Below, piece after piece: positions 30,692-54,038 of a stretch of 64,000 nucleotides of DNA. The stretch covers positions 1,600,001 to 1,664,000 of the forward strand of contig OZ250183.1 of assembly GCA_965238225.1 (NCBI GenBank), written 5' to 3'. Below the pieces are notes generated by a model. That model saw only the letters and a list, made by a program, of their open reading frames with translations, had not been told where the DNA came from and ran no database searches. The first letter of the stretch is position 1; every line of letters begins with the position of its first letter. The translations under genes were made by a program, and so were the position numbers. The DNA comes from Gammaproteobacteria bacterium (GTDB lineage Bacteria > Pseudomonadota > Gammaproteobacteria > Eutrophobiales > Eutrophobiaceae).

Positions 30692-31210
30692 ATGAAAAAA
30701 GTTTGTTACGCAATACTATTGATACTATTAAGCGTCCAAACCATCTTTGCAGATCGTAACGATGGTGCCTATGCCTACCTGCAAGGTGACTATGAAACTG
30801 CATATAACGTCATGATTTCATTGGCTAATGTTTCTGATGACAAAATCGCACAATATTATCTAGGTGTGATGTATATGGAAGGACAAGGAGTAAAACAGGA
30901 TTACGAAGAGGCAGGAAAATGGTTGCGCAAGGCATCAAAACAGGGTTTGGCAGCTGCCATGTATAAACTTGCGCATCTCTACACCAAAGGTAAAGGTGTC
31001 CCTAAAGATTTAGAATTTGCGTATGTATGGTACCGCGTTGGTGCTACCTATAATCATCAAAAATCAATCAATATGATTGATGAGGCAAGATCTAAACTTT
31101 CTGACGAAAATCTAGCCTCTGCAAATCAGCTGATTGCTGAATACGTAGAAAAATATGGCTCTAAAGACGAAAATGAAGGGAGGGTAGTAGGCGAAGAGTC
31201 CAAAAAATAA
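30692..31210 (+). CDS. Secreted Sel1-like repeat protein
   Basis: Signal peptide; AQYYLGVMYMEGQGVKQD and AMYKLAHLYTKGKGVPKD repeats. Confidence 0.9.
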   Translation: MKKVCYAILLILLSVQTIFADRNDGAYAYLQGDYETAYNVMISLANVSDDKIAQYYLGVMYMEGQGVKQDYEEAGKWLRKASKQGLAAAMYKLAHLYTKGKGVPKDLEFAYVWYRVGATYNHQKSINMIDEARSKLSDENLASANQLIAEYVEKYGSKDENEGRVVGEESKK

Positions 31211-31247: not shown

Positions 31248-34200
31248 TTATGGTTCAAGGTCGTCTAGATCTTCATCATCCTCAATATCTTCTTCAAATT
31301 TCTCGAAAGCACTCAATTCATCTTCGGTCAAAACATCTTCGTCAGTAAAGCGTTCTTCTTCGGTAAACTCTTCTTCAAACTCTTCGTCATCGACTGCCAG
31401 ATACTCTTGCAGTTGTTCACGGTAATCCGTGAAATTGTCGAGCTCTTGCTCATAACCCTCGATCAATCCATCCAGTTTTTCTTTTTCGGAATCACTCTTA
31501 GCTTCGTTTAAGAGTTCTCTGAGTTCTTTTAGTTTGATGCCAATTTGTGCAATAAATTCATCTAATTTATCTTCAGAAACATTTGGAGCGCAGCCTTCAA
31601 CCTCCTCGCATTGCCCCAGCGCCAATGCCACGCCCCGCCCAAACACTTCAAACAAGGCGAGATCTTGTTCAAATACGCTGGTATCGATAAATCCTAATTT
31701 TACAGCACCCACCAAATCTACAGATGGGTTCAGTACTCCTACGACTGCAATACTAAACGTACCAAAAAATAAGTTTAGAACATTTTGAAGTCCTGTAGAA
31801 CCTCCTTCCGGACCTCCTGAAACTTGCGAACCTGCACCAAATTTAAGGTCACTAACTGTGCTGCCTATTGCAACTTCAACAACACCGCCATCCAAGGCAA
31901 GTTTTATATTTTCAGCTACATCAATCCTATCGCCTGCAATCAATACCGCTTTTTTGGATTTAAAATCTGTAATGCCAGCAGGACCAGTAATAACGCCAGT
32001 ACCAGAAGTGGATTTTACGCCATCATCAACACCAGCAGCGATAAGTGATAGAGTGCCGCCGCTTGCAGTAATTCCTTGAGCTAAATTTAAATCGCCAGCA
32101 AGCAAGGTGACACTACCTCTACTATTTATCGCAGTATTGACATTAATCGCGGAGCTATTTACCACGATCCCTGTGGAATCTAAGAATGTTGCACCTGGAG
32201 TCAGTGTGCCGCCAATAATAAGATGCCCATCAAACTCCGTTAGTATTGGCAGTATTAAGTCACTGCTGCCAATAGTGATAGCAGTTCCAGATGTGCTAGG
32301 TATGGTTAATATACCTGTGCCTGTAACTCTACCCATAGTAGTCAATGTCTTGCCAGAATTAAAATTCCAGATATTGTCTGATGTCGTAATCTCTACTGTT
32401 CCATGATAGTTTCCATCAGATGTAAAGGTATTCCTACCCCCTATACCGCTTCTAATCCGACTAAAACCATTAAATACGATGCCATTTAGCGTGCCAGCTT
32501 CACTATAATCAGTAAGTATCCATGTAGATCCCGATGCTGAATTACCAATTATCCTATTGACACCTCCTACCATTCCATTAAAAGCATTAAATCCTGTGTA
32601 ATTTATGTCATCTGAGCGACCAGTATTAGTGCCAATCACCGTAACTTCATTGAGGTTTGAAACAAAACCTGTGCCGCTTATATCGCTGAGATTTGCAAAG
32701 GTGATGCCATTTCTCTCCGTGTCGCCATGATTAAAGTCTTGAACCCCTACTATTGTGGTGGTATCTGCTGCTGTAAAGCCTCTGTGGGTGATGCCTGCTG
32801 CTGTACCTATTGTTGTGCCGGTCGGTGTAAATGCGATGTCACCCATGCCTACAATCCCACCTGTGCCGGTAATATCGGTGGCACTTAAAAATCTCATGTC
32901 ATGGGTGCCGTTGATGCGTACGCCGTCCAGAAAATGAAAAAAGTTTATAGCCCCTGTTACTGTAGTCGTATCTGCTGCTGTAAAACCACTGTAGGTGAAG
33001 CCCCCTGCCGTACCTGCCGTTGTACCGGTCAAGTTAAATGCAGTTGAACCCATATTGGTAATATTGCCTGTGCCGGTGACATTGGTGACACCCGCAAAGG
33101 TCATGCCACGACTACGCTTTAAACCATGATTAAAGTCTTGAGCCCCTGTTAAGACACCAGTCGTATCTGCTGCTGTAAAACCACTGTAGGTGAAGCCCCC
33201 TGCCGTACCTGCCGTTGTACCGGTCAAGTTAAATGCAGTTGAACCCATATTGGTAATATTGCCTGTGCCGGTGACATTGGTGACACCTGCAAAGGTCATG
33301 CCACGACTCGCGACGGTGTTATGATTAAAGTTTTGAGCCCCTGTTACTGTAGTCGTATCTGCTGCTGTAAAACCACTGTAGGTGAAGCCCCCTGCCGTAC
33401 CTGCCGTTATACCGGTCAAGTTAAATGCAGTTGAACCCATATTGGTAATGTTGCCTGTGCCGCTTATATCGCTGAGATTTGCAAAGGTGATGCCATTTCT
33501 CTCCGTGTCGCCATGATTAAAGTCTTGAACCCCTACTATTGTGGTGGTATCTGCTGCTGTAAAGCCTCTGTGGGTGATGCCTGCTGCTGTACCTATTGTT
33601 GTGCCGGTCGGTGTAAATGCGATGTCACCCATGCCTACAATCCCACCTGTGCCGGTAATATCGGTGGCACTTAAAAATCTCATGTCATGGGTGCCGTTGA
33701 TGCGTACGCCGTCCAGAAAATGAAAAAAGTTTATAGCCCCTGTTACTGTAGTCGTATCTGCTGCTGTAAAACCACTGTAGGTGAAGCCCCCTGCCGTACC
33801 TGCCGTTATACCGGTCAAGTTAAATGCAGTTGAACTCATATTGGTAATGTTGCCTGTGCCGGTGACATTGGTGACACCTGCAAAGGTCATGCCACGACTA
33901 CGCTTTAAACCATGATTAAAGTCTTGAGCCCCTGTTAAGACACCAGTAGTGTCTGCTGCTGTAAAACCACTGTAGCCGATGCCCCCTGCCGTACCTGCCG
34001 TTGCGCCGGTCAAGTTAAATGCAGTTGAACCCATATTGGTAATATTGCCTGTGCCGGTGACATTGGTGACACCTGCAAAGGTCATGCCACGACTCGCGAC
34101 GGTGTTATGATTAAAGTTTTGAGCCCCTGTTACTGTAGTCGTATCTGCTGCTGTAAAACCACTGTAGGTGAAGCCCCCTGCCGTACCTGCCGTTATACCG

Positions 34201-36650
34201 GTCAAGTTAAATGCAGTTGAACCCATATTGGTAATGTTGCCTGTGCCGGTGACATTGGTGACACCTGCAAAGGTGATGCCACGACTCGCGACGGTGTTAT
34301 GATTAAAGTTTTGAGCCCCTGTTAAGACACCAGTGGTGTCTGCTGCTGTAAAACCACGGTAGGTGAAGCCCCCTGCCGTACCTGCCGTTGTACCGGTCAA
34401 GTTAAATACAGTTGAACCCATATTGGTAATGTTGCCTGTGCCGCTTATATCGCTGAGATTTGCAAAGGTGATGCCATTTTTTTCCGTGTCGCCATGATTA
34501 AAGTCTTGAACCCCTACTATTGTGGTGGTATCTGCTGCTGTAAAGCCTCTGTAAGTGATGTTCCCCGCCATACCTGCCGTTGTACCGGTCAAGTTAAATG
34601 CAGTTGAACCCATATTGGTAATATTGCCTGTGCCGCTTATCGCTTCATAATCCGATGAAACAGTGACAACAGTAGTAGTTCCCCCTGAAGTGGTAATACT
34701 CGATTTGCCTGTGCCATGATTAAAACCAGCAAGTCCTGTGATTGTATCTGCAGCGGTATCAGAAAGTGTTATACCTGTATCTGAAGCGTTAATCGCTGTT
34801 ACGCCTTCTGTCTTTTGAATATTTACAGTATCATCATCGTGAGAACCATCGATATTGATAGTGCCGAGCACAGCCCTTGTAGCAGCCCCAGTTTGAGTCA
34901 GTGCGTTGCTGCTAATATCTGAAGTGATATTGATAGTTATCTCGTCAGAAGAATCACTTCCAGTGATATCCAACGTATGATAGCCTGAAAAAGCGATGTC
35001 TTCGCCCACGCCCAGAATAAGAACATAGGCATCCTCAGCCAGACTCGCATCGCCACTACCCCCTGTTGTACCGGATGTAAAAAAAGTCCCGATTGCCAAA
35101 GATGCCACTTCAGCTGACGTGAAATTTACAGTTAAAGTCCCTGTGCCTGTCCAGTCATTAAGAGGCTCAAGACCAGAAAAATCTATGGTTTCGGTAAAGG
35201 ATCCGTAATCATAGGTTAACCCTCCAGCCTTACCTGCGGCATCACCTTGTCTTGTGGTGTATGTCATCCCAATACTGTTTGTATGCGCAGTGTTACTTTT
35301 ATAAAAATTTGCCAGATCATTTTCATTATCTACAACGCCTGAATCGTCTATAACTATATGCTTCTCACCCGTGCCAAGTGCAATGTTGTATGTATCTGAA
35401 CCCTCACCGCCATCTAAAGTTATTATAGGCGCTAATGAGGCATCGATATGGTATGTATCCTCGCCACTTCCGCCGGTAACATTCACCGAACCTGCTAGGT
35501 ATTTCCCTTCTAAAGTGCTTGTGCTGCCTGCATGTGACTCGCCGGTGTGAATGTTAATTGTCCCACTAGATTTATTATCAGCACCTGATGCATTGAGGAC
35601 TCCAGACTCAGTAACAGCAACATTCGTTGCAGAAATTTCAATCATACCGCCATCATCAGCACTTGATGAAACATCAAGCATGCCAGTGTTGATAAGGGAA
35701 TTACCTGATCCAACAGCAACCAATTTAATTGTACCGCCCTGATTTTCAATTTTCCCGGCGCTAATCATGCCGCTGTTATTTACCACCTTAGAAAACACAT
35801 CTTTTGCGGCAGAACCTTGCAACAATACACTGCCACCTTGAGCCTCAATCTCACCGGTATTACTGACTGCGGCATCTAAGGACTGCACATTTGTAAGAAC
35901 TTCTTTGTCGATAGCAAACTGCATTAGGCCATCGCCGTCGAAATCAATGGCAAGCTGATTACCTGCGAGCAAATTTACCTGTCCGATAGAAACACGGATG
36001 ACACCTTCATTGATGACGGCTTTACCAACAAGATTAACTGACCCACCGGCAGCAGCCTCCAACACGCCCTGATTGATAACGATGCCATCTGTCCCATCAA
36101 CGCTGTTGAAATTAAATCTGCCGTTCATAAAGTCGTCACTGGATATGTCTAGCCCAGATACAGTGAGCGAATTGACATTGACACTTGAGCCTGGTTTAAA
36201 GAAGACTCCATTAGGGTTAACGAGTAATATACGGCCAGCAGCGCTTATTGAACCGAAAATTTGGCTGGCACTTTGATCGGTGATCCGAGCCATAAATTGA
36301 TCGCTTGCTTTTTGCTTGATAATTACCTTCTCATGAGCGGCAATATTAAATGAATCGTATTGAGCTGCGAGCTGCGAGGAAAATTGGTCAACTGTGTGTG
36401 TGTTGCCTACTGTGTTTAGCGTTCCGTCTCCAGCAATGATCACGCCACCTTGAGGATTGGCAAAAACGACGCTTGAGTTCAAAGCTAAACATAGACTGAA
36501 AACGAATAAACTGACAACAGGCAGGCGGACGTTACCAATACGCTCGGCAACAAAACTCACTGCCAAGCTGCACATTTGTCGCGCAAAGCTTCTTTTTTTG
36601 CTTCTTTTCTCAGTCAGTAATTTAAACAAATGACGTTCTCTTTTGTTCAT
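31248..36650 (-). CDS. Two-partner secretion passenger (TpsA), filamentous-haemagglutinin-like adhesin
   Basis: Extended signal peptide, TPS domain (ANPQGG, SFNI, SQIFGSI, LVNPNG), Thr/Gly repeats; adjacent to TpsB. Confidence 0.92.
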   Translation of the reverse strand: MNKRERHLFKLLTEKRSKKRSFARQMCSLAVSFVAERIGNVRLPVVSLFVFSLCLALNSSVVFANPQGGVIIAGDGTLNTVGNTHTVDQFSSQLAAQYDSFNIAAHEKVIIKQKASDQFMARITDQSASQIFGSISAAGRILLVNPNGVFFKPGSSVNVNSLTVSGLDISSDDFMNGRFNFNSVDGTDGIVINQGVLEAAAGGSVNLVGKAVINEGVIRVSIGQVNLLAGNQLAIDFDGDGLMQFAIDKEVLTNVQSLDAAVSNTGEIEAQGGSVLLQGSAAKDVFSKVVNNSGMISAGKIENQGGTIKLVAVGSGNSLINTGMLDVSSSADDGGMIEISATNVAVTESGVLNASGADNKSSGTINIHTGESHAGSTSTLEGKYLAGSVNVTGGSGEDTYHIDASLAPIITLDGGEGSDTYNIALGTGEKHIVIDDSGVVDNENDLANFYKSNTAHTNSIGMTYTTRQGDAAGKAGGLTYDYGSFTETIDFSGLEPLNDWTGTGTLTVNFTSAEVASLAIGTFFTSGTTGGSGDASLAEDAYVLILGVGEDIAFSGYHTLDITGSDSSDEITINITSDISSNALTQTGAATRAVLGTINIDGSHDDDTVNIQKTEGVTAINASDTGITLSDTAADTITGLAGFNHGTGKSSITTSGGTTTVVTVSSDYEAISGTGNITNMGSTAFNLTGTTAGMAGNITYRGFTAADTTTIVGVQDFNHGDTEKNGITFANLSDISGTGNITNMGSTVFNLTGTTAGTAGGFTYRGFTAADTTGVLTGAQNFNHNTVASRGITFAGVTNVTGTGNITNMGSTAFNLTGITAGTAGGFTYSGFTAADTTTVTGAQNFNHNTVASRGMTFAGVTNVTGTGNITNMGSTAFNLTGATAGTAGGIGYSGFTAADTTGVLTGAQDFNHGLKRSRGMTFAGVTNVTGTGNITNMSSTAFNLTGITAGTAGGFTYSGFTAADTTTVTGAINFFHFLDGVRINGTHDMRFLSATDITGTGGIVGMGDIAFTPTGTTIGTAAGITHRGFTAADTTTIVGVQDFNHGDTERNGITFANLSDISGTGNITNMGSTAFNLTGITAGTAGGFTYSGFTAADTTTVTGAQNFNHNTVASRGMTFAGVTNVTGTGNITNMGSTAFNLTGTTAGTAGGFTYSGFTAADTTGVLTGAQDFNHGLKRSRGMTFAGVTNVTGTGNITNMGSTAFNLTGTTAGTAGGFTYSGFTAADTTTVTGAINFFHFLDGVRINGTHDMRFLSATDITGTGGIVGMGDIAFTPTGTTIGTAAGITHRGFTAADTTTIVGVQDFNHGDTERNGITFANLSDISGTGFVSNLNEVTVIGTNTGRSDDINYTGFNAFNGMVGGVNRIIGNSASGSTWILTDYSEAGTLNGIVFNGFSRIRSGIGGRNTFTSDGNYHGTVEITTSDNIWNFNSGKTLTTMGRVTGTGILTIPSTSGTAITIGSSDLILPILTEFDGHLIIGGTLTPGATFLDSTGIVVNSSAINVNTAINSRGSVTLLAGDLNLAQGITASGGTLSLIAAGVDDGVKSTSGTGVITGPAGITDFKSKKAVLIAGDRIDVAENIKLALDGGVVEVAIGSTVSDLKFGAGSQVSGGPEGGSTGLQNVLNLFFGTFSIAVVGVLNPSVDLVGAVKLGFIDTSVFEQDLALFEVFGRGVALALGQCEEVEGCAPNVSEDKLDEFIAQIGIKLKELRELLNEAKSDSEKEKLDGLIEGYEQELDNFTDYREQLQEYLAVDDEEFEEEFTEEERFTDEDVLTEDELSAFEKFEEDIEDDEDLDDLEP
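32682..34640 (-). repeat. Ten intragenic 64-69 aa tandem repeats with a 786-bp higher-order duplication
   Basis: Unit (I/V)(S/T)GTGNITNMGSTAFNLTG...FTAADTT...; identical antisense ORFs at 32755 and 33541 mark the 786-bp offset. Confidence 0.92.
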
Positions 36651-36927: not shown

Positions 36928-38736
36928 CTAGAATTTATATGTCATATCCCCCCAGATCTGCACATTGCGCCCATTACCAACATCATTGCCGCCAATTTCA
37001 GTCGCAACCGAGAGTTTTGATTCAAACACTCCGGGTAATGTGAATCGCAGACCTAAACCAACACCCCGCAACGAATTGTGTCTTTGCTGTTCTGTTGGCA
37101 ATGGATAATTCAATCGGCCTGATGCCTGCTCAAAGAACAGGCTAAATTGTAGTAATTCACCCCATGTGCGACTATCAAACGCAGGCTTATCTGCAAAGCC
37201 TGGGGCATTCATTAACCATTCTAAGGATAAAAAATAGGCGCGATCCCACAAAACCTGAGAAACAGGGAACGCTCGAAGATTATCCGGTCCGCCGACGGCG
37301 TATTGCTCTATGGCAAGCAACGCATCTTTAGCCCACTGAAATTCTGACCGAATCAATAAAGAATGGTTCTTTCTAAGCGTCTGTAGCCGTGTATAACTGG
37401 CAAATACTTTACTAAACTGACCTGCAGCAAACCGACCGTCAGGCAGACCTTTTTGTCTACTTGGCTGAAGTCCAATCGGCAAGTTAAGCGCATCAACATG
37501 ACTGCCTATGGAGTTAAAGAGATTATTCACCCCATGGCTAAACTCCAGAAAGGCAAAGTTGATACCGCCGCCACTATCATCAGGATCATTGCTGAGGCTG
37601 AATGTATCTACAGAATCATAATCAGCAGATAAAGTGAAAACAGCCAAACGATCCCTGTTTGTGCTGTTGGTAACCGTAATTGTTTGAGATTTCTTGCGGG
37701 TAAAGCCAAAACTTGCAGAAAAATTTTTCTGGCGACTTCTGATGAAAGATTTTTCTATATGTACACCCTGAGTTTCTGATCTGGAACTAATCTGACTATC
37801 GGCGAATTCACCGCCAACATCAAAGGCATTGACGTTAATAAATCCGCCAATTTTATAACCACCAACAAGAAACATGTCATAAGCTGCACTAACGAAAAAA
37901 TTCTTTTTAGGGTGGTACGATTGTTGCCCTGTAAGCGTAAGGCTATCAGCAAACCCGGATATGTTGTTCCAGTCAATGATGGTGCGTAAACGATTACGAC
38001 CAGTTTCCTGAGTACCATGAACATCCGCCCGAATTGCAACATCGAATTGTTTTTCTTCTTGCACTTGAATTACAAGGTCTGCCGTACCAACATGTAGCCC
38101 TGGCTGAAAAACACCATACGCGCTAAGTCCTGAATAATCAGTCAATCTTAGAAGTGCCGCTTCGATCTTCGATTTACTAACAGGCTGTCCTATCAACTTA
38201 CGAAAGGGTCTCTTAAGTATCTCGTTTTTGTATATTTCGTTGCCTTCTGTTAGAATCCGCCCAAGCTTGCCGACCAAGATCTGAACATCAACGATGCCGT
38301 GTGAGATCGTTTGCACGGGGATGACTGCCTGAGCAAGGATTAGACCTTTTCTGCGGTAGAATTTTTCGATTACATCCGCAACGCCTTGCAATTGCCCAAC
38401 GGTAAACCCCTTTGGTTTAAGAGCCTTTTCGTCTTCCAAAAGTGCATTAAGCTCACTAAGATCGATGCCAAATTCAGGCAAATTTTCGGCATCTAACAAG
38501 CGAAATTCCGTAATGAGGACTGTTTCGCCTTCGTCCACACGAAGCGGTCTGTCAACAACGGCAGGAACCTCTAAATTCCCAGAATTGGATGGGTTCTTGG
38601 AATGTTCATCCTGGGAAGGGCGAACTGCCCCAGGACGGGCAAAACCAGATAAGTCTGCAGAATCTGCAAAAATCGATGTAATCATCGTCATGTTGCAACA
38701 CAGCACAACTGCTATAGTAGAAACCCTACTGCCCAT
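36928..38736 (-). CDS. ShlB/FhaC/HecB-family TpsB outer-membrane transporter
   Basis: POTRA-like YRRKGLILAQAVIPVQTI, GGPDNLRAF (VRG motif variant), C-terminal Phe. Confidence 0.9.
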   Translation of the reverse strand: MGSRVSTIAVVLCCNMTMITSIFADSADLSGFARPGAVRPSQDEHSKNPSNSGNLEVPAVVDRPLRVDEGETVLITEFRLLDAENLPEFGIDLSELNALLEDEKALKPKGFTVGQLQGVADVIEKFYRRKGLILAQAVIPVQTISHGIVDVQILVGKLGRILTEGNEIYKNEILKRPFRKLIGQPVSKSKIEAALLRLTDYSGLSAYGVFQPGLHVGTADLVIQVQEEKQFDVAIRADVHGTQETGRNRLRTIIDWNNISGFADSLTLTGQQSYHPKKNFFVSAAYDMFLVGGYKIGGFINVNAFDVGGEFADSQISSRSETQGVHIEKSFIRSRQKNFSASFGFTRKKSQTITVTNSTNRDRLAVFTLSADYDSVDTFSLSNDPDDSGGGINFAFLEFSHGVNNLFNSIGSHVDALNLPIGLQPSRQKGLPDGRFAAGQFSKVFASYTRLQTLRKNHSLLIRSEFQWAKDALLAIEQYAVGGPDNLRAFPVSQVLWDRAYFLSLEWLMNAPGFADKPAFDSRTWGELLQFSLFFEQASGRLNYPLPTEQQRHNSLRGVGLGLRFTLPGVFESKLSVATEIGGNDVGNGRNVQIWGDMTYKF

Positions 38737-39237
38737 ACTTCCGATAAATTCTCACTTTAATATGCCATACACACTCAACCCGCACTTATATCACAGATTC
38801 TAGAGCACTTAATATAGCCCTTTCACTTAAATTTTGACTTACACTAAAACATCCTTGACTGCAAGACACCCTTGGAAGTGTAGCACTTCTATTATTCCAT
38901 GCTATAAAAAAATCCACACCCTTGCAAATGAGTATTTTGGGGCATTGTCTTCTTCACAAATTTATGGGTAAAAATCACCATTCTTAACCCAAGATTATTC
39001 TTGAAATTTGAAAGAGTTATTTTATGCATTAAGATTTTCCCTTAAAGGATAATAAGGTATGATGACAATCTAAGGTATAACGGCAATCACCAAGGAAAAC
39101 GCTAAATATTCATATAAACACATACACAAGTTACAAGAAAATGGTGTAAAAAAATAAACATCAATTTGTCCATTTGTAATGCACAAGCCAAAACTAGACA
39201 ATGAAATATATAAAGCCATAAAAAAACCAAAACCCCC

Positions 39238-40149
39238 ATGCAACCAAAAACTATAGATACAGCCATTGTGTTCGCCGATATAGTGGGCAGCACCAAAATT
39301 TACGACACAATTGGTGATGAGCGTGCAAAAGCAAAAATTGCAGCAACGCTTAAGACTATGTCAGAGATTACCAAAAACAATCAAGGTACAGTAATCAAAA
39401 CTATTGGTGATGAAGTCATGTGTGCTTTCCCAACAGCCGAAAAGGCCAATGCAGCGGCGCAAGAAATGCAAGAGACATTTGAGGAGGAATCAGAATCAAA
39501 TACTGATGGCTCACCTATTGTTATTAGAGTCGGAATGCACTTTGGCTCGGCAATTATGGAAGATGGTGATGTCTTTGGGGATACTGTAAATATTGCAGCA
39601 AGAATGGCGGCACAAGCAAAAGCAAAACAAATCATTACCACACAAGATACGCTAGATAAATTACCAGCATCGGTATGTGCCAGCGCACGTTTCGTTGATC
39701 GTGCGCACATTAAAGGTAAACAAGAAACGATTGATATATTTGAAATTATCTGGCAGGAGGGAGATGTCACGCAGATGGCAGTAAGAAGCATAGTTGCGAA
39801 CAAGACAATACCGGAAACTAAGCTAATGCTAACCTATAGGGGTGAGACAGTTGAACTCAGTAAATCACGACCTAGCCTGATAATGGGAAGAGGTAAAAAT
39901 TGCGATCTCACAATCTATGAAGAACTGGCATCAAGACAACATGTGCGTATAGAACTACGCAAGGATAAATTTTTCATTGTGGATCAAAGCACGAATGGGA
40001 CGCATGTTATAACAGATAACAAACCTGAAGAGTTTCTTCGTAGAGAAGAGATTTCGCTAACCAGCGGCGGATGTATCAGCCTTGGAAAAAGTTTTAGTGG
40101 AAACCCAGATGAAGTGGTGGAGTTCAAGCTGATTGGTTCCCAAAATTAA
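39238..40149 (+). CDS. Class III adenylate cyclase with C-terminal FHA domain
   Basis: FADIVGST, IKTIGDEVM, DVFGDTVNIAAR; FHA motifs GR, SRQH, STNGT. Confidence 0.9.
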   Translation: MQPKTIDTAIVFADIVGSTKIYDTIGDERAKAKIAATLKTMSEITKNNQGTVIKTIGDEVMCAFPTAEKANAAAQEMQETFEEESESNTDGSPIVIRVGMHFGSAIMEDGDVFGDTVNIAARMAAQAKAKQIITTQDTLDKLPASVCASARFVDRAHIKGKQETIDIFEIIWQEGDVTQMAVRSIVANKTIPETKLMLTYRGETVELSKSRPSLIMGRGKNCDLTIYEELASRQHVRIELRKDKFFIVDQSTNGTHVITDNKPEEFLRREEISLTSGGCISLGKSFSGNPDEVVEFKLIGSQN

Positions 40150-40215
40150 ATTACTGCTTTGTAAGATTTCTTTAAAAAGTCTATGGAGTTGGTGTAGGCA
40201 GGTGATAGAAATACA

Positions 40216-40962
40216 ATGGTTATGGTAGAAAACAAATTGTCCGCTCATTATTCATGGTCGTCGTTTGGTATTACTGACACTGGCAAAGTTCGTGAGCGCA
40301 ACGAAGATTCACTACTCAACAAACCGGAAATAGGGTTATGGGTTGTAGCTGACGGTATGGGCGGCTACCAAGATGGTAATATCGCGAGCCAGATGATAGT
40401 CAATTCACTTAGCAAAATTCGTACAGACATAGCTCTCAATCTATGCATTGATAACATAGAAGACAGACTTCTGAAAATCAATAAATATTTGACTGAAAAA
40501 GCGCGGACATCAAAAAACAATGCAACGATAGGAAGCACAGCCGTAGGTATGCTCGCTTATGATAGATTTTGCACTTTTTTCTGGGCAGGTGACAGCCGTC
40601 TGTACAGACTGCGTAATGGCTCGCTAAACCAGTTAACAGCCGATCACTCGCAAGTTGAGGCTTATATCAGGCAAGGCTTAATAGATCGCCAAGATGCAGC
40701 AGACCATCCACACGGCAATATGATTACGAGAGCAGTAGGTGCAGAAAAAGAGCTTTACGTCGATTTTGATATTCAGGAAATGCAATACGGGGATCGATAC
40801 ATGCTTTGCAGTGATGGTCTAACCAAGCATTTGCAAGATATTGATTTTGAAAAAATGCTGAGTAAGGATGATGCTAAACAGGCATGCAAGAAATTAATCG
40901 CGCTCACTATGAAAAGAGGCGCAGGTGACAATGTCACCAGCATCGTAATTGATATTAAATGA
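40216..40962 (+). CDS. PP2C-family Ser/Thr phosphatase (PppA-like)
   Basis: RERNEDS, VADGMGG, GDSRLY, ITRAVG, LCSDGL, DNVT. Confidence 0.95.
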   Translation: MVMVENKLSAHYSWSSFGITDTGKVRERNEDSLLNKPEIGLWVVADGMGGYQDGNIASQMIVNSLSKIRTDIALNLCIDNIEDRLLKINKYLTEKARTSKNNATIGSTAVGMLAYDRFCTFFWAGDSRLYRLRNGSLNQLTADHSQVEAYIRQGLIDRQDAADHPHGNMITRAVGAEKELYVDFDIQEMQYGDRYMLCSDGLTKHLQDIDFEKMLSKDDAKQACKKLIALTMKRGAGDNVTSIVIDIK

Positions 40963-40995
40963 TCATGACTGAGTTAATGAGCATGGGAATAAACC

Positions 40996-43900
40996 GTGGC
41001 TAATTTTAAAACAGCACTTGAAGCACTCGCAAAAGGCAATATGGATATTGATGCTTTGACCAAACAATTACTCGTGCTGCTTGATGAGGCACCTCAGCAC
41101 GCCAATCTTATGCTCTCTCAACTTGATGAAATACATGACCAAAAAATTATTAGCGATCAAGATTACACAAAACTGAAGGGTCATATTAATGAGTACAGAA
41201 GAGATCACTCGGTAGAAACAGAAACTGGCACACATGCTGATGATGAGGCAACGGTGTTTGCTCACAAACCTGATACGCAAGATGATGCAGATGATAAAAC
41301 ACAAGTAATTTCAAGCAATGAGGGTAACACGCAAGAGTCCGGCGTTACTGGCTTTGATGTAACCAGCGGAACAGATATGGGCGGTACCGATATCGATCTT
41401 AGCGACATTCATAGCCCATCAACTATATCCGTCACTGAGACATCTGACGCTACCTGGTCAGAACCTTCCACACAATCCCCTGAAGCGCAAACAACAGCAC
41501 TAGGTCCAGGCTCTATAATTAAACAGCGCTTTAAATTGATTGACGTGCTTGGTATCGGCGGTATGGGTAAAGTATACAAAGGATTGGATCTTCTCAAAGA
41601 AGAGGCAAAAGACAAGAAACCCTATTGTGCAATCAAGCTGTTAAACGAAGATTTCAAAGACCACCCAGAAGCGTTTATATCACTACAACGTGAGTCCAGT
41701 CGCCAACAAAAGCTGGCGCACCCAAACATAGCAACAATCTATGATTTTGACCGCATTGCAGGTCCTGGGACACCTGTCTACATCACTATGGAGCTGATGG
41801 AAGGCATGGAGCTTAAGGATTACATCAAGAAAACGGTAAAAAAACAGAACGGTCTCCCATTTGACGAAGCCTTCCCTATGATCAAACAGATGGTAGATGC
41901 GCTCGCTTATGCACACGATAAACGGCTGGTGCATTCAGATCTCAAACCGGGCAATGCCTTTTTATGTAACGACGGCACAGTAAAAATACTGGATTTTGGT
42001 ATCGCGCGTGCAGTAAAAAATCCTGTTACCGGGGAGACTGAAAAAACGCTGTTTGACCCAGGTAAATTAGGCGCATTGACGCCAGCTTATGCCAGTTACG
42101 AAATGCTGGAAGGTGAAGAACCAGATACACGAGATGACACTTATGCTCTAGGTTGTATGGCATATGAACTGCTAACAGGCAACCACCCCTTTAATAAATT
42201 GCCCGCCAACAAAGCCAAGGAAAATAAACTCAAGCCACCTATGGTCAAGGGCTTAAAGAAAAAACAAAATCGTGCTTTGCAAAGAGCTATCGCATTTGAA
42301 CGTAAGGATCGTAGCCCCACTATCGAACACTTCCTGAAGGAACTTGAAAACAAATATATCTGGTACAAGAGTCCGTCTACGATTGCTGCGGTATTTGCTG
42401 TGGTTATTAGTCTTGGCGGAACGGCGCCTCTATTAAATTATATGAATCAGAGAAATATAGATCGCATGATTACTGATATCAATACTGGCACACCACAGGT
42501 AATAGTTGATCGTTTAGAAGCAATTAATGAATTTGAAACAACTGATCAAAGAGAAATTATTGATGGTGCAAAGGCTGCCATTCAAGACCACTTCAGTGAG
42601 AAAATCGGTAAACTTACCGACACAACAGGTGACAAATACGACTTCCCTGAAGCAGGGTTGGTGCTTGCCAGAGTCGGCAAACTCTATCCAGATTCAAGCT
42701 TTTATCTGGAACAATCTAAGCATATCGAAACCAGCAAGAATCAGAAACTAAGCACACTCTACAGTAAGTATTCGGCAGCGCTGAGTGGTTCTTCTGCACT
42801 GCTGGATAATACTAAGACTATTCTTGAGCGAATCAAAACCCAGATTGATCCTATGGATTCCTTACTAACAGATCCTCGCGCCAGTAACCAATATAGATTA
42901 TTGGCACAGAGCGCATTCGACCAAGGCGATCTTAAACAGGCAACAACATTGATTACTTCTGGTATTGCGCTTACTGATTCCAGTATCAAAATCGCACGAG
43001 AAAAGGAACAATTGGCATCACAAGATGAACAATTGCAGTTGCAAGCGGAACAATTGAAATATGAACAATCGCTTGCACAATTGAAGGATGTCAAGAACAA
43101 AATAGAAACAAAAGTTGATATCATTGCGCTGGAAGAAAGACTTGGTATTCAATCTACCAGACTTGCGTCACTTATTGATTATCAGAAAATAAAAACCGAC
43201 GTTATTGAACTGACCGAACTCAATCCAGAAAGCAATACGCTTACTTCCATTGCTGCTTCCATGCAAAACACGGTGACTCAAGAGCTTGTCAAGATTTTGA
43301 CAAGCGGCAACAGAGAAGATGCTGAGGTATTCGTTAATGAATATGGCGATATATTGAACGCCTTACATCTGAATAAAGAACTCACAGAAATGAAACTTGC
43401 GCATTTTCAAGGCGCACGACGAAGTGCAGAAATTCGGGCTATTGTGAATACGCACACATCCACAATTGACGAATCACTCAAATCTCCCAACATAGAAGAT
43501 TTAAAGTGGGAATCGAAAATATTGACCAGTGTTGGAGAACTTGATGTCTTATCCAAAGAAGATCCTTCAGCAGCAGATGATCTTAAGACTATTCGCCAAA
43601 AAATCGCTCAACTCTATATTGGTGCGGCACAAAAAACACTTGATGCCGAACGATTTTATGTTGCCAAAAATTTTATTAATAAAGGTCGCCGCTTTGCGCC
43701 TGATGATGCAAAAATTTCTAGCATGAGCGCTACCATTGAACAAGCTGAGGTCGCGTATGAGACCACATATAAAAAGAAATTATTGGTTGATGGTCTGATA
43801 GTAGAGTTTGAGACGAAAACAAAAGCAAATGACATTGCCGGTGCACTTGATTATTTTAAACAACTGGAAAAAGAAATACCTGATAACGTATTTGTTACCG

Positions 43901-45396
43901 ATGAAGCGCCCAGATTAATTTCATTAAGCTACGAAAGACTCGCTAAAATCCAATTTGATGCGAAGAAATATGCAAATGCGGTAAAATTTTCTGATGAAGG
44001 TCTCAAATTCGACCCTGATAACATTGATCTGGAAACTGCCAGAGCAGATTATATTGTCGAAGAAAATATCATCGATTTGACCCAGAAATTTAAATCATCA
44101 ATTAGATTTAATATAGATGATATATACAGAAAGATCGAGGACATAGAAATATCCAACCCCCTTAGATACAGTAAATTCAAGAGGGATTCTATTAAAATTC
44201 TGGTAGACCGCATCAATAAAAAACTAAATAATAATGAAAAAGATGCTGCTGCGGTGATCGTAGCAAATGCAGTAATATTCTTCCCTAGCAACGCCGAACT
44301 TGAAAAACTCAAAAGTGGTCTGAAACTTAAACCGTGGCCAAATACTATGATTGCAAAGGAAGCCTTGGACGCAGGCGAGCTCACCGAAGCAAAGAAAATA
44401 TTACAGAATGCTCTAAAAAAATTTCCTACACATCCTACCGTTAATAGATTCAAGACTTCATTAGAGACCAAAATTACACAAGCAAATAAGAACTTTGATA
44501 GATTTAAGGCTGAAAAAGATACGGCAGGAACAGATTATAAAAAATTGAACAAAGCCAAGAAATTTCTCTCTCGTGCTCAGCGTTTTTGGATGGATAGTCC
44601 TGTTTTTGACGAAGCCGAGGTGGCGCTGGATAAATTAATTAATAAATACAAGCCAACCTCAAAAAAGGTAATTGCTAGAGAAGTGATCAATCTGGAATCC
44701 TTTGACATAGAAAAACCTGAGACTGCCCTAAGAAAATGGAGACCAATCGACAGTGGTCGGAGTTGTAAGAAAAGACTTGCAGGTTATGGTAAACGCTCCA
44801 AGGCTGTTTGCTACGATTTTATATACTCGGGTTTGCGCGGGCCTTTTATGGTAGTGGTACCTACAGGAGGTGAATTCAGCAGTCATTTTGCCATCAGTAG
44901 GTATGAAATTTCCGTACAGGACTACAGCAAATACTGTCTTATTTCTAAATCATGCCCACAAGAAAAAAATAAAAATCTCTTCAATAACCCAATCACTGGT
45001 ATTGCACTTACTGAAGCAAAAGCCTATGCAGAATGGATATCTAAACGCACTGGCAAAACCTATCGCCTACCAACAGCAAGCGAGTGGGAATATGCAGCAC
45101 AAGCTGCAGGCAATAAAAAGATGAAGAAAAATTACAACTGTAGAGTTATCATTAACAATAAGATCGTTAAAGGTACAGGGCTTGTTAGTGTTAAAACAGG
45201 ACAACCCAATGATTGGGGCTTAAAGCATATGATTGGCAATGTTCAAGAATGGGTCATTGATGGAGATAAGGTGGCTGCTCGGGGCGGCGCTTTTGAAGAT
45301 GTACATTCCAAATGCAAAGTCTCGTTTAGCAAAGAACATAGCGGAATGGCTGACGACGTGACTGGTTTTCGCCTGATGTTGGAAGAAGTAAAGTAG
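40996..45396 (+). CDS. Membrane Ser/Thr kinase with C-terminal FGE-sulfatase (SUMF1-like) domain
   Basis: LGIGGMGKVY, AIK, HSDLKPGN, DFG, TPAYAS; single TM; helical region; YRLPTASEWEYAA, PNDWGL, GNVQEW, TGFRL. Confidence 0.92.
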   Translation: MANFKTALEALAKGNMDIDALTKQLLVLLDEAPQHANLMLSQLDEIHDQKIISDQDYTKLKGHINEYRRDHSVETETGTHADDEATVFAHKPDTQDDADDKTQVISSNEGNTQESGVTGFDVTSGTDMGGTDIDLSDIHSPSTISVTETSDATWSEPSTQSPEAQTTALGPGSIIKQRFKLIDVLGIGGMGKVYKGLDLLKEEAKDKKPYCAIKLLNEDFKDHPEAFISLQRESSRQQKLAHPNIATIYDFDRIAGPGTPVYITMELMEGMELKDYIKKTVKKQNGLPFDEAFPMIKQMVDALAYAHDKRLVHSDLKPGNAFLCNDGTVKILDFGIARAVKNPVTGETEKTLFDPGKLGALTPAYASYEMLEGEEPDTRDDTYALGCMAYELLTGNHPFNKLPANKAKENKLKPPMVKGLKKKQNRALQRAIAFERKDRSPTIEHFLKELENKYIWYKSPSTIAAVFAVVISLGGTAPLLNYMNQRNIDRMITDINTGTPQVIVDRLEAINEFETTDQREIIDGAKAAIQDHFSEKIGKLTDTTGDKYDFPEAGLVLARVGKLYPDSSFYLEQSKHIETSKNQKLSTLYSKYSAALSGSSALLDNTKTILERIKTQIDPMDSLLTDPRASNQYRLLAQSAFDQGDLKQATTLITSGIALTDSSIKIAREKEQLASQDEQLQLQAEQLKYEQSLAQLKDVKNKIETKVDIIALEERLGIQSTRLASLIDYQKIKTDVIELTELNPESNTLTSIAASMQNTVTQELVKILTSGNREDAEVFVNEYGDILNALHLNKELTEMKLAHFQGARRSAEIRAIVNTHTSTIDESLKSPNIEDLKWESKILTSVGELDVLSKEDPSAADDLKTIRQKIAQLYIGAAQKTLDAERFYVAKNFINKGRRFAPDDAKISSMSATIEQAEVAYETTYKKKLLVDGLIVEFETKTKANDIAGALDYFKQLEKEIPDNVFVTDEAPRLISLSYERLAKIQFDAKKYANAVKFSDEGLKFDPDNIDLETARADYIVEENIIDLTQKFKSSIRFNIDDIYRKIEDIEISNPLRYSKFKRDSIKILVDRINKKLNNNEKDAAAVIVANAVIFFPSNAELEKLKSGLKLKPWPNTMIAKEALDAGELTEAKKILQNALKKFPTHPTVNRFKTSLETKITQANKNFDRFKAEKDTAGTDYKKLNKAKKFLSRAQRFWMDSPVFDEAEVALDKLINKYKPTSKKVIAREVINLESFDIEKPETALRKWRPIDSGRSCKKRLAGYGKRSKAVCYDFIYSGLRGPFMVVVPTGGEFSSHFAISRYEISVQDYSKYCLISKSCPQEKNKNLFNNPITGIALTEAKAYAEWISKRTGKTYRLPTASEWEYAAQAAGNKKMKKNYNCRVIINNKIVKGTGLVSVKTGQPNDWGLKHMIGNVQEWVIDGDKVAARGGAFEDVHSKCKVSFSKEHSGMADDVTGFRLMLEEVK

Positions 45397-45443
45397 GTAA
45401 AAGAATAAACTAGACTAGACTCAAACAAATAAAGTCAATATTA

Positions 45444-46196
45444 ATGATGAGAGATTTACGCGACCTTGCAGAAGAATACGCCCAAAATGTGATTGACAAA
45501 GCGAGCTATCGCAAAGCTAGGAGCGAGCTAATTCAAGGAATTTGTGCCAAGAAAATTAAAATCAAGGCACGTCAATACTTAACGCCACTTAAAACTGTGA
45601 CTGATGAGTTAAGTAAAACAAAAGAAAATACTATTCTTCAACCCTCTAAGCTGAACAAGAACACTACGCCAACATCAAAAAGACCGGCGCAAAGCTACTC
45701 ATCTCCTTGGGAGAACAAGCATAAAAATATCCTTATTAGTGCAGCAATCATCGTTTGCCTGTGTGTCGTCGTACTATTAATTTTATTGACACCTAAAAGC
45801 GACCCTAATAAAAACCATATCCCAACTGCCGACATTGGTAAGCAGGAAATCCAGTCACACACAGGTCAAAATTTAATTATTGATTTTATCCAGAAGAAAA
45901 ATTGGACAGAGGATAGTCTAGGTTTATTTGTCACGTCGTGGCGTAAGCTCGCAAATGCAGAACGAGCCGCTGCGCAAAACAGTCCAGAAATGAAAAGACT
46001 CATTAATGTTATCTACCAACAACTTCTAAGTGAGCGCGCCTTGCTAGGCTTGGGTGATGTTAAAAACGCGGTCGCCAATCAACGAATATTGGTTAATTTT
46101 GTAGAACATTTGGGAATAGATGATGAACGATTCACTATTACCGAGCCCAAACTCCCTCTTGATACCGAAATTCTTACAGAAAAAACTGCAAACTAA
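45444..46196 (+). CDS. Hypothetical bitopic membrane protein
   Basis: 250-aa ORF co-directional with the kinase, one strong TM (ILISAAIIVCLCVVVLLILL), SHOCT-like N-terminus. Confidence 0.7.
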   Translation: MMRDLRDLAEEYAQNVIDKASYRKARSELIQGICAKKIKIKARQYLTPLKTVTDELSKTKENTILQPSKLNKNTTPTSKRPAQSYSSPWENKHKNILISAAIIVCLCVVVLLILLTPKSDPNKNHIPTADIGKQEIQSHTGQNLIIDFIQKKNWTEDSLGLFVTSWRKLANAERAAAQNSPEMKRLINVIYQQLLSERALLGLGDVKNAVANQRILVNFVEHLGIDDERFTITEPKLPLDTEILTEKTAN

Positions 46197-53456: not shown

Positions 53457-53860
53457 AATAATATTCCTGTTATTTATACGTTTTATAAAAGGTTGGTTAT
53501 TTGTAAGTTTAATCTTTTTTAAATCTTCTTAACGTTACGGTACAACAATAGTGCTATACAGCGTTCAATCATTAGCCGATATCTTGTTTGCATTTTTGTT
53601 GTCAAAAAGGTATTTAAAGATAAATCCTGTCAATGTTTTGCGTATTTATCTGTGTTTAAGGCTATATCCTTTAATGTACAACTTTTGCTATCACTAAATT
53701 GTGATACCCAAATAGGGTACCCTAAAAAAACGTTATACGAAAGTGGCAAATACATTAAATGTTGATTTAACTTTAGATACATAACATGCCTTATATAGGC
53801 ATTGCACCACTAATATTGTGGGGGGGTATGACCACAAGGTTGGTGAAAAAGTTCCACACC
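53451..53860. repeat. ~410-bp RTX upstream (promoter/RBS) region, copy A
   Basis: Near-identical to 60087-60492 (AGCCATAATAATATTCCTGTT...AAGTTCCACACC). Confidence 0.92.
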
Positions 53861-53955
53861 GAAATGTAGAATTAGAGGTTAAATAAGATAATATTAAAGG
53901 GATCTAGATAGGATAAAGACAGGACTAAATGTAGAATTAGAGGTTAATAAATAAT

Positions 53956-53981
53956 ATAAAGGGATCTGTAGATCCCTTTAT
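53956..53981 (-). terminator. Terminator hairpin after RTX copy 2
   Basis: ATAAAGGGATCT-GT-AGATCCCTTTAT with an AT-rich tail on the minus strand. Confidence 0.65.
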
Positions 53982-54038
53982 TGTTATTGTCTTAAACTTA
54001 AACCTTTTATTTCACTTAAATCTGCTGTGATTAAGCTA

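Follow-up and report, generated by a model that had tools for sequence, protein, structure and literature searches.

A conserved kinase, phosphatase and cyclase-FHA neighbourhood suggests a link between threonine phosphorylation, cAMP and two-partner secretion

Known phosphorylation switches and a compact relative

Threonine phosphorylation by Hanks kinases is paired with a secretion system in the Pseudomonas aeruginosa H1 type VI secretion system (H1-T6SS). There, PpkA/PppA/Fha1 and TagQRST set a single-pass Hanks kinase, a PP2C phosphatase and an FHA reader beside the machine. An FGE-like periplasmic domain forms part of the sensing; a model of TagR has this domain bound to the ectodomain of PpkA (PMC13713981). 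Other systems couple phosphothreonine (pThr) to nucleotide cyclases. Bdellovibrio DgcB, an FHA-GGDEF protein, is activated by a pThr peptide in its own flexible region, with an unidentified upstream Hanks kinase (PMC6733907). In P. aeruginosa SiaABCD, a PP2C/kinase pThr switch drives a nucleotide cyclase, and adhesins are needed that include the two-partner secretion (TPS) system CdrAB (PMC7647112). An FGE/DUF323 domain at the C-terminus of Hanks kinases, such as those of chlamydiae, is an architecture on record since 2005 (PMC1262709).

We analysed a locus in which such components lie side by side, within a 64,000-nucleotide stretch of gammaproteobacterial DNA (the window). The source genome measures 1.72 Mb, in one contig, and is 100% complete. 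On the plus strand, a 303-residue cyclase-FHA gene (39238..40149; PF00211 at residues 7-164, PF00498 at residues 215-283) is followed by genes for a cytoplasmic PP2C phosphatase (40216..40962; 248 residues; PP2C_2/PP2C, PF13672 and PF00481), a single-pass Hanks kinase (STK; 40996..45396; 1,466 residues; Pkinase at 180-450, TPR matches, FGE-sulfatase at 1296-1460) and a single-pass (bitopic) partner (45444..46196; 250 residues) that belongs to no Pfam or NCBIfam family. Gaps of 66, 33 and 47 bp separate the four. On the minus strand, across 501 bp, lie tpsB (36928..38736) and tpsA (31248..36650). The original prediction had described this four-gene run as divergent from tpsB-tpsA and had placed a distal FGE-sulfatase domain in the 1,466-residue kinase; the open reading frames, the 501-bp gap and the Pfam match at 1296-1460 bear out both. 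None of the four proteins received an equivalog-level NCBIfam name.

No T6SS accompanies this module. The prediction had called the run T6SS-like and had seen no T6SS structural gene in the window; no core gene was found either there or in the rest of the genome. The T6SS families PF05943, PF05638, PF05591 and PF06761 gave zero matches each in the complete genome, and the E. coli control was positive. TssB, TssC, Hcp and TssM are absent, so the kinase has no T6SS to act on. Against the TagH/Fha1 model TIGR03354, the FHA domain scored 30.1 bits, far under the cut-off of 120.25. A PP2C, a Hanks kinase, an FHA domain and an FGE-like domain do together resemble PpkA/PppA/Fha1/TagR, and could be read as the threonine-phosphorylation pathway of a T6SS encoded elsewhere in the genome. 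With zero matches to TssC, Hcp, TssB and TssM in a one-contig, 100%-complete assembly and an FHA domain so distant from TagH, this reading is almost certainly wrong; it is refuted for the source genome, unless a T6SS there has diverged beyond the reach of the four Pfam models. What stands of the T6SS-like label is the Hanks kinase, the PP2C and the FGE-like periplasmic component. The TagH/Fha1-type FHA and the T6SS fall away, leaving an analogy only.

The module departs from each described system in a different way. Like H1-T6SS, it sets a single-pass Hanks kinase together with a PP2C and an FHA reader beside a secretion system, and it has an FGE-like periplasmic domain. Unlike H1-T6SS, the secretion system is of type Vb, the kinase itself carries the FGE-like domain, C-terminal to a solenoid of about 700 residues, and the FHA domain falls outside the TagH/Fha1 orthologues. 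This FHA domain shares a polypeptide with an adenylate cyclase, which makes the predicted output a diffusible messenger, not machine assembly. Like DgcB (PMC6733907), the module fuses an FHA domain to a dimeric nucleotide cyclase, here with the invariant T178 in the linker between the two. Unlike in DgcB, the catalytic domain belongs to the class III adenylate cyclases instead of the GGDEF family, and the domain order is reversed, with the FHA C-terminal; the kinase and phosphatase genes are next door, and the kinase carries a look-alike threonine motif. SiaABCD (PMC7647112) shares the predicted PP2C/kinase switch, the second-messenger cyclase and the TPS adhesin. Unlike the module, it is a partner switch acting on SiaC that makes c-di-GMP, uses other families and does not lie beside TPS genes. 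For the kinase-FGE proteins, PMC1262709 mentions no FHA-cyclase partner, TPS linkage or long TPR solenoid.

Literature searches, with subscription journals and supplementary files outside their scope, found no description of a cyclase-FHA/PP2C/kinase/TPS module and no paper on the regulation of FHA-fused adenylate cyclases. The locus is a complete and compact case, with writer, eraser, reader-enzyme, candidate phospho-sites and a likely TPS adhesin partner side by side. Its conserved neighbourhood in many marine bacteria suggests an undescribed link between phosphorylation, cAMP and a surface adhesin. If the link is true, a second secretion system besides T6SS would be paired with a Hanks-kinase threonine-phosphorylation pathway, and Ser/Thr phosphorylation would be connected directly to cAMP in bacteria.

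Linkage to two-partner secretion genes

The tps genes encode a type Vb pair, in which a TPS-domain TpsA adjoins a TpsB with POTRA domain and ShlB barrel. TpsA is an exoprotein of 1,800 residues whose N-terminus bears a TPS/NPXG secretion domain (PF05860, 87.7 bits; TIGR01901 also matched). In the PDB, its N-terminal sequence matches the corresponding parts of EtpA, HxuA and HMW1, and by tblastn its conservation among relatives is confined to about the first 350-390 residues. TpsB is an Omp85-type transporter whose POTRA_2 domain (PF08479) and ShlB barrel (PF03865) both exceed Pfam cut-offs. Hydropathy places a hydrophobic segment at residues 5-26 of its signal-peptide-like N-terminus. TpsB orthologues adjoining the module in relatives are 43-67% identical.

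The 501-bp divergent intergenic region (38737..39237) holds a conserved block and has lost a gene. Relatives carry a gene for a periplasmic parvulin PPIase here, between tpsB and the cyclase. No remnant was detected by tblastn across the whole source genome, which has lost the gene. A promoter-like block, TTTTCCCTT..GAATAATAAGGTATGATGA (39020..39068, plus strand), lies about 170-200 nt 5' of the cyclase start codon. Its core is invariant in an alignment of 8 same-genus loci, and 17 of 118 loci, other genera included, have the block 5' of the cyclase. We regard it as a candidate for the promoter or operator that serves the module operon. Rfam matched no family in the region, and intergenic promoter and terminator scans scored no better than shuffles.

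TPS linkage recurs in five gene orders and many families, so the objection that homologous modules are unlinked to TPS elsewhere fails. In order 1, TpsA-TpsB-(PPIase) diverges from cyc-PP2C-STK-bitopic. Of 20 same-family genomes (about one per genus), 16-18 have this layout: all 20 carry cyclase, PP2C and kinase, while the PPIase is present in 18/20 and TpsB in 16/20. Other families have the order too (L039-L043). Order 2 has bitopic-STK-PP2C on the minus strand diverging from TpsB-TpsA (L046, L118, L159). The remaining three lie on one strand: cyc-STK-TpsB-TpsA (order 3; L132), PP2C-STK-bitopic-TpsB-TpsA in a genome without FHA-cyclase (order 4; L156/G284) and TpsB-TpsA-SapC-cycFHA with the kinase 1.6 Mb away (order 5; L157/G135). 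The kinase-TPS link survives in two genomes (G284 and G202) that keep PP2C-STK-bitopic with TpsB-TpsA and have no FHA-cyclase anywhere, so cAMP is not required for the link. In family f11 it is the cyclase, not the kinase, that adjoins the TPS operon. In family f31 the kinase is short and lacks the FGE domain, and all TpsB matches are weak.

Counts over larger sets point the same way, though they draw on related genomes and are not independent samples. An orthologous kinase was present in 56 of 156 non-redundant loci, with TPS no more than 20 kb away in 40 of the 56, and TPS was present in 5 of 96 cyclase-FHA loci without kinase. Within a 400-genome sample of the class, the TpsB type occurred in 17/22 genomes with the kinase solenoid vs 16/377 without.

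The same surveys bear on whether the TPS is a mere neighbour. The module might be a general envelope-state sensor that sets cAMP, much as TagQRST-PpkA senses membrane damage, with TPS beside it through conserved chromosomal order or as one of many regulated targets, and without direct contact with the kinase. Order-1 flanks are also co-conserved (Sel1, a ubiG-like MT, HAD, gltX, aconitase-family and ADH genes), and since these are housekeeping genes, part of the order-1 conservation is backbone synteny. The module also occurs without adjacent TPS (L015, L048, L049, L051, L057, L086): L015/G511 has no TpsB found in the genome, and in L049/G417 the TPS lies 246 kb from the module. Marinospirillum celere DSM 18438, a cultured and harmless carrier of the module, encodes its TpsB orthologue on another contig. 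The source genome encodes a further FGE-domain membrane protein, PP2C-TM-FGE (G000 C1:1528499-1530655), which speaks for more general use of the FGE-like periplasmic domain, and the TagR FGE domain acts in membrane-damage sensing (PMC13713981). Against this stand the five orders, some of them operon-like, that keep TPS by the kinase operon or the cyclase, the same-strand L132, L156 and L157 among them. These rearrangements make backbone synteny insufficient and rule it out as the full explanation. Together with the skewed TpsB counts, they leave the general sensor an unlikely reading.

A second alternative keeps the TPS and demotes the cyclase. Kinase, PP2C and bitopic protein might mainly control TPS biogenesis or release post-translationally, for example with the periplasmic solenoid as a scaffold or chaperone platform together with the parvulin, leaving the FHA-cyclase a dispensable read-out of secondary importance. 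G284 and G202 fit this, as does the parvulin, which accompanies the module also in loci that have no adjacent TPS (L044 and L049) and forms a PPIase-cyc operon in L048, L051 and L057. A TPR-like solenoid of about 700 residues, as modelled, would also be typical of protein-binding scaffolds. A cytoplasmic kinase domain and phosphatase are, however, ill-suited to a purely periplasmic role, nearly all carriers have a cyclase-FHA with intact catalytic residues, and f11 keeps the cyclase rather than the kinase by the TPS operon. We regard this reading as distinctly improbable.

Comparative genomics, as a record of gene neighbourhoods, supports a real tie of the module to TPS genes. On balance, we think the module is probably a pThr signalling unit that has a periplasm-reaching receptor kinase at its centre and functionally belongs with the adjacent TPS (type Vb) system, a view we hold with modest confidence.

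A reader-cyclase, its predicted cAMP and a shared threonine motif

Cyclase-FHA has the residues of a working enzyme. It consists of a class III cyclase domain (residues 1-173; PF00211, 74.4 bits vs a cut-off of 21.9), a linker with T178 (codon 39769-39771) and an FHA domain at about 200-290 (PF00498, 42.3 bits vs 20.7). The prediction had named ATP-specifying residues in IKTIGD and DVFGD; K54 and D111 are indeed there, as are D14, D58, N118 and R122. We take D14 and D58 to be the metal aspartates, K54 and D111 the substrate pair, and N118 and R122 the transition-state residues. These six are kept in 35/36 family and 17-18/18 distant module sequences, and G217, R218, S232, H235, N253 and G254 of the FHA domain in 35/36 and 18/18. 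The domain is minimal, at about 165 residues, which could hint that it is silent or makes another nucleotide and that the protein is an FHA adaptor only. Such a role is very improbable: all six canonical residues occur in 53/54 module-linked sequences with an ATP-type K/D specificity pair, cNMP-binding proteins co-occur with the cyclase, and the closest solved relative and best PDB match of the cyclase part (E 1.4e-17), Ma1120, is deposited as a cyclase. Ma1120 is catalytically active.

The source genome has one predicted source of cAMP and no CRP-type reader. The complete genome contains a single PF00211 match, making this the sole class III cyclase, and zero matches to PF01295, the class I family, so cAMP can come only from cyclase-FHA. 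Three cNMP-binding proteins are encoded, with a rhodanese domain, a coiled coil or no extra domain, and none is CRP-type. The prediction had proposed that cAMP could control adhesin expression or display. Judged by these domain assignments, no CRP-type regulator is present that would connect cAMP to tps transcription. Across the order, the cNMP-rhodanese protein is present in 33/34 genera and cyclase-FHA in 31/34, and both are missing from the same genus (0/23 each).

The kinase and the cyclase-FHA protein carry the same threonine motif, D-x-T-x-hydrophobic-A. From N- to C-terminus, the kinase has a helical domain (residues 1-75), an acidic, threonine-rich linker with T86 (codon 41251-41253), the kinase domain (132.6 bits vs a cut-off of 31.7), a transmembrane segment (461-481), the TPR-like solenoid and the FGE-like domain. 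The FGE-sulfatase match, like PP2C_2 in the phosphatase, is above its Pfam cut-off. H313-S314-D315, a non-RD motif, and D333-F334-G335 are invariant in 25/25 orthologues. Between L40 and G172, T86 is the sole invariant residue in the same 25. Its motif occurs in 34/48 kinase orthologues, two of which have it in tandem repeats, 10x and 7x. T178 is conserved in 35/36, 18/18 and 21/25 cyclase-FHA sequences from three sets.

T86 and T178 are candidate FHA ligands and putative phospho-sites. Hanks kinases have a weak site consensus, and other constraints may account for the conservation of the two motifs. Of the cyclase-FHA homologues with 39-45% identity, most stand alone (87/156 loci) and still keep T178, which is thus not specific to this kinase. 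Full-length homologues occur in 83/400 sampled Gammaproteobacteria, and a single scan matched more than 585 stretches.

We propose a route from the periplasm to cAMP. The periplasm would hold the kinase solenoid and FGE-like domain, the TpsA precursor, the POTRA domains of TpsB and, in relatives, the parvulin. Sensing of an envelope, secretion or contact state in this compartment would toggle the cytoplasmic non-RD domain of the kinase, which would phosphorylate T86 in its own pre-kinase linker (D-x-T-V-F-A). Phosphorylated T86 would serve as a docking site for the FHA domain of the cyclase, and the kinase would next phosphorylate T178 in the cyclase-FHA linker (D-V-T-x-M-A). Bound by an FHA domain, phosphorylated T178 would set the activity state of the dimeric class III cyclase, on or off, much as FHA gating does in DgcB. 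PP2C would reset the switch, and the three non-CRP cNMP-binding proteins would read the cAMP. The TPS system might be input, output or both. The most specific version, in which the solenoid and FGE-like domain monitor TpsB/TpsA (secretion, tension or target contact) and pThr-FHA gating passes the signal to cAMP from the sole cyclase, is tentative and by itself rather doubtful. If true, it would amount to outside-in adhesion signalling for type Vb secretion, widespread in marine and sediment Gammaproteobacteria.

Kinase ectodomain, phosphatase and single-pass partner

The periplasmic half of the kinase combines two recognisable folds. An AF2 model of residues 511-1466 reached a pLDDT of 87.9, and its Foldseek matches were TPR scaffolds on the one hand and FGE, PvdO and ToxD on the other. 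The fold match of the FGE-like domain to formylglycine-generating enzyme is clear, and the 25-orthologue alignment contains six invariant cysteines. The phosphatase matched the Stp1/IreP model NF033484 with E 1.4e-61 and 208 bits, below the 230-bit cut-off.

The bitopic protein is the constant companion of the kinase: wherever an arrangement includes the kinase, the bitopic gene lies 3' of it. Alignment and hydropathy define a conserved cytoplasmic helix pair (4-34), a threonine-containing linker and a transmembrane segment (92-121), and an AF2 model (pLDDT 78.9) predicts a conserved five-helix periplasmic bundle (135-235). As a single-pass inner-membrane protein and possible phospho-target, it resembles Agrobacterium TssL (PMC3953482). 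Fold searches with it gave generic helical matches only (best Z 7.5), and the Atlas gave unnamed clusters only. The N-terminal helices of kinase and bitopic protein have a short common motif, but an hhalign probability of 8.7% led us to reject them as homologues. Complex prediction for kinase residues 1-560 with the bitopic protein scored 0.00 in both runs, made without controls, and weighs neither for nor against an interaction. In several other families, the bitopic protein is fused to a second FGE-like domain.

The module and its two-partner secretion neighbour

The cyclase-FHA gene belongs to a compact module set back-to-back with a two-partner secretion (TPS) pair. The ORF list and Pfam confirm the originally noted four-gene run diverging from tpsB-tpsA, with co-directional genes for the cyclase-FHA protein (39238-40149), a PP2C phosphatase (40216-40962) and a 1466-aa kinase (40996-45396), followed in the ORF list by a 250-aa single-pass protein, here called bitopic (45444-46196). 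Gaps of 66, 33 and 47 bp and the shared direction suggest a single operon. On the opposite strand, 501 bp from the module, tpsB encodes POTRA_2 and ShlB domains (Pfam) and tpsA an 1800-aa protein with a TPS/NPXG domain, whose N-terminus is similar to those of EtpA, HxuA and HMW1. Upstream of the cyclase gene, a block of about 50 nt (39020-39068, plus strand; TTTTCCCTT..GAATAATAAGGTATGATGA) is conserved across genera; within it lie a TATGAT resembling a -10 element, paired with a poor -35, and a CCCTTGAA stretch similar to the sigma-32 -35 consensus. Just downstream of the module and its flanking MT-HAD genes, three RTX-repeat proteins of 398, 768 and 2017 aa follow in succession (48880-60092, minus strand), each with 16-45 HemolysinCabind stretches plus HCBP_related.

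Close relatives share the order TpsA-TpsB-PPIase<>cyc-PP2C-STK-bitopic-MT-HAD (<>, divergent; cyc, cyclase-FHA; STK, kinase). Their PPIase, a parvulin with a signal peptide, is encoded at the position matching 38737-39237 and has been lost from the window's genome. Across 20 same-family loci, about one per genus, cyclase, PP2C and kinase are always present (20/20), the single-pass protein and PPIase in 18/20 each, and TpsB in 16/20, with TpsA alone in one more; the exceptions are L026, L027, L020 and L025. Because flanking housekeeping genes are co-conserved, same-family synteny alone could be backbone synteny. The parvulin's mature N-terminus is conserved (AFSIxELLGLG), and its gene keeps company with the module even when TPS is not adjacent, forming an operon with the cyclase in family f31. 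Flanking the TPS-module locus, and conserved there, is a Sel1 gene (30692-31210); Sel1-repeat coding stretches are very many for a genome of 1.72 Mb (for example C1:49-52 kb, 119-121 kb, 1283 kb, 1453 kb, 1577-1579 kb and 1721 kb).

Rearranged gene orders in distant genomes are the decisive evidence on the meaning of the TPS neighbour. Analysed with profile HMMs made from the family loci and checked with Pfam, the neighbourhood survey bears out TPS linkage elsewhere: five orders keep TPS near the kinase or cyclase. The first, TpsA-TpsB-(PPIase)<>cyc-PP2C-STK-bitopic, also occurs in other families (L039-L043, L083). The second places bitopic-STK-PP2C on one strand, divergent from TpsB-TpsA (L046, L118, L159); the third, from Ca. 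Azotimanducaceae, reads cyc-STK-TpsB-TpsA on a single strand with PP2C divergent (L132); the fourth runs PP2C-STK-bitopic-TpsB-TpsA on one strand (L156, genome G284). The fifth joins TpsB-TpsA-SapC-cycFHA on one strand, at a distance of 1.6 Mb from the kinase (L157, genome G135). The giant TpsA of L157 (G135 C1:1814000-1833999), which carries DUF5649 repeats, seems to be divided among four ORFs by frameshifts or assembly errors. No FHA-cyclase was found in G284, a 100%-complete genome, or in G202, the source of L159. These two cyclase-free genomes show that the relation between kinase and TPS can do without cAMP. Influence may also run opposite to the sensing direction proposed below, with the kinase controlling TPS.

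TPS follows the kinase in two counts. Among 156 non-redundant loci, with TPS counted within the same locus at 20 kb or less, it accompanies 40 of 56 kinase-bearing loci (several of the other 16 lie on truncated contigs) and 5 of 96 cyclase-FHA loci without kinase (two of the five being threshold or contig artefacts). In an even draw of 400 Gammaproteobacteria genomes, the window's own excluded, TpsB matches occur in 17/22 genomes with the kinase solenoid and 16/377 without it; the latter 16 include G135 and G458, where another query finds the kinase, and sampled relatives are not independent of each other. The cyclase-FHA count of 83 genomes includes the unpublished G162, G240, G384 and G394, and becomes 79/396 without them.

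Several genomes depart from the clustered arrangement. In G511 cyc-STK occurs with PP2C and TPS both absent, TPS lies 246 kb from the module in G417, and Marinospirillum celere carries the module on one contig and a TpsB of 45% identity on a different one. Family f31 combines a short kinase without FGE with a PPIase-cyc operon and weak TpsB matches only. In L038, L044, L058 and L059 cyc-PP2C remains, with the kinase lost and TPS absent. We read the whole as a three-part system of TPS pair, kinase/PP2C/single-pass trio and FHA-cyclase, in which clustering is usual and not obligatory.

Protein anatomy and paired threonine motifs

In the cyclase-FHA protein, Pfam places a class III nucleotide cyclase domain at residues 7-164 and, fused to it, an FHA domain at 215-283. 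The predicted ATP-type Lys and Asp are confirmed as K54 and D111. All six catalytic residues and the pThr-pocket residues of the FHA domain are conserved in 35/36 family and 17-18/18 distant module-linked sequences; among solved cyclases, the minimal enzyme Ma1120 is closest. The kinase has a Hanks domain (180-450), TPR matches and a C-terminal FGE-sulfatase domain (1296-1460; Pfam), with a single membrane segment at 461-481 (hydropathy). Across 25 orthologues its DFG and the H-S-D catalytic loop are invariant, the latter making it a non-RD kinase.

Kinase and cyclase share a threonine motif. Ahead of the kinase domain, a conserved helical domain (1-75) is followed by an acidic Thr-rich linker, in which T86 is the sole invariant residue between L40 and G172 in 25 orthologues; its motif, D-x-T-V-F-A, is found in 34/48. 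The cyclase-FHA linker holds an invariant T178 in (E/D)-D-V-T-R-M-A, conserved in 35/36, 18/18 and 21/25 sequences. Both sites have an acidic residue at -2, a hydrophobic one at +2 and Ala at +3, a pattern resembling that of the GarA and OdhI tails that bind FHA domains. DgcB offers a solved case of an own-tail phospho-Thr gating an FHA-fused cyclase (PMC6733907). In two pre-kinase linkers the Thr motif is multiplied in tandem: L034 repeats D-A-T-A-I ten times, once every 15 aa, and L032 repeats E-K-T-V-I seven times, once every 8 aa. Both have the look of arrays for docking at several sites.

AlphaFold2 with 34 orthologues confidently modelled the periplasmic part of the kinase (pLDDT 87.9) as an all-alpha solenoid of about 700 residues joined by a short linker to an FGE fold; Foldseek matched TPR scaffolds and FGE, PvdO and ToxD. 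The FGE-like domain holds six invariant Cys, which would suit an oxidising compartment. The 250-aa protein, which has no Pfam family match and no informative match in the fold search, combines, on the cytoplasmic side, a conserved pair of helices and a linker often with D-x-T, then a single membrane helix (92-121; hydropathy) and, in the periplasm, a conserved bundle of five helices. Outside the window, a 718-aa protein (C1:1528499-1530655, minus strand) reads as PP2C, membrane segment and periplasmic FGE-like domain, a putative transmembrane phosphatase with the kinase's type of ectodomain.

Relation to known pathways and a proposed mechanism

The module resembles the T6SS threonine-phosphorylation pathway in design and does not belong to it. 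Of the original "T6SS-like" description, the likeness to PpkA/PppA/Fha1/TagR stands and membership is rejected: TssC, Hcp, TssB and TssM families gave no match in the whole genome (one contig, 1.72 Mb, rated 100% complete; E. coli control positive), extending the noted absence beyond the window, and the module's FHA domain scored 30.1 bits on the TagH/Fha1 model against a cut-off of 120.25. The single-pass protein is the nearest counterpart of TagR, since several families fuse it to a second FGE-like domain. That pathway and DgcB are the closest designs, with SiaABCD alike at the level of logic (PMC7647112).

None of the parts is unfamiliar. Novelty, in testable form, lies in their conserved three-way association, in the pairing of Thr motifs and in the sole-cyclase status, and a cultured carrier of the module is available. 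Kinase-FGE fusions have been known since 2005 (PMC1262709). With subscription literature and supplements outside the search's scope, we found no paper on an FHA-adenylate cyclase regulated by an adjacent Hanks kinase and PP2C, or on two-partner secretion coupled to a pathway of threonine phosphorylation.

We propose that the solenoid, FGE ectodomain and single-pass partner sense a periplasmic state tied to TPS, which could be TpsA passage or accumulation, TpsA-target engagement or outer-membrane disturbance. Phosphorylation of T86 by the kinase would provide a docking site for the FHA domain. Once recruited, the cyclase would itself be phosphorylated, on T178, and binding of pT178 by an FHA domain, in the same protomer or across two, would alter the dimer geometry that class III catalysis requires. 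PP2C would return the switch to its starting state, and cAMP would act via cNMP-rhodanese and related proteins. Beyond the domains and residues present, every step is inferred.

Putative cyclic nucleotide signalling in the window's genome

The module's class III cyclase is the only cyclase in its genome in a search covering classes I and III, with no class I enzyme found. Three cNMP-binding proteins are encoded (in map order, C1:702613-704988, 971478-972140 and 1368154-1369209), two with tandem cNMP domains. One tandem protein, here called the first, also has a rhodanese-like domain (Pfam); in the second, of 791 aa, a stretch resembling rhodanese and an extended coiled coil rich in Lys/Glu are read by eye. 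The third, of 220 aa, has a cNMP domain and no further Pfam family. Because none of the three has a DNA-binding domain or is a CRP-type regulator, control of tps transcription by cAMP is without an obvious carrier.

Cyclase and candidate effector are both widespread in the order. Among 126 genomes, all of one family, cyclase-FHA orthologues occur in 87 (31/34 genera of the order) and the first cNMP-rhodanese protein in 99 (33/34 genera). One genus has neither (0/23 each); this joint loss is only a hint, being one single evolutionary event.

The genome encodes three Hanks kinases, one fused to a receiver domain (1014196-1015464), and four FHA proteins. A second FHA neighbourhood holds a secreted or membrane protein of 547 aa that reads as VWA-like region, membrane segment and FHA (C1:1324292-1325935) and, 1.3 kb away, a 297-aa FHA protein (C1:1327220-1328113). 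Some relatives have a paralogous second full-length cyclase-FHA at 31-35% identity (for example G100 C2:630986-631885 and G024 C1:1269104-1269988).
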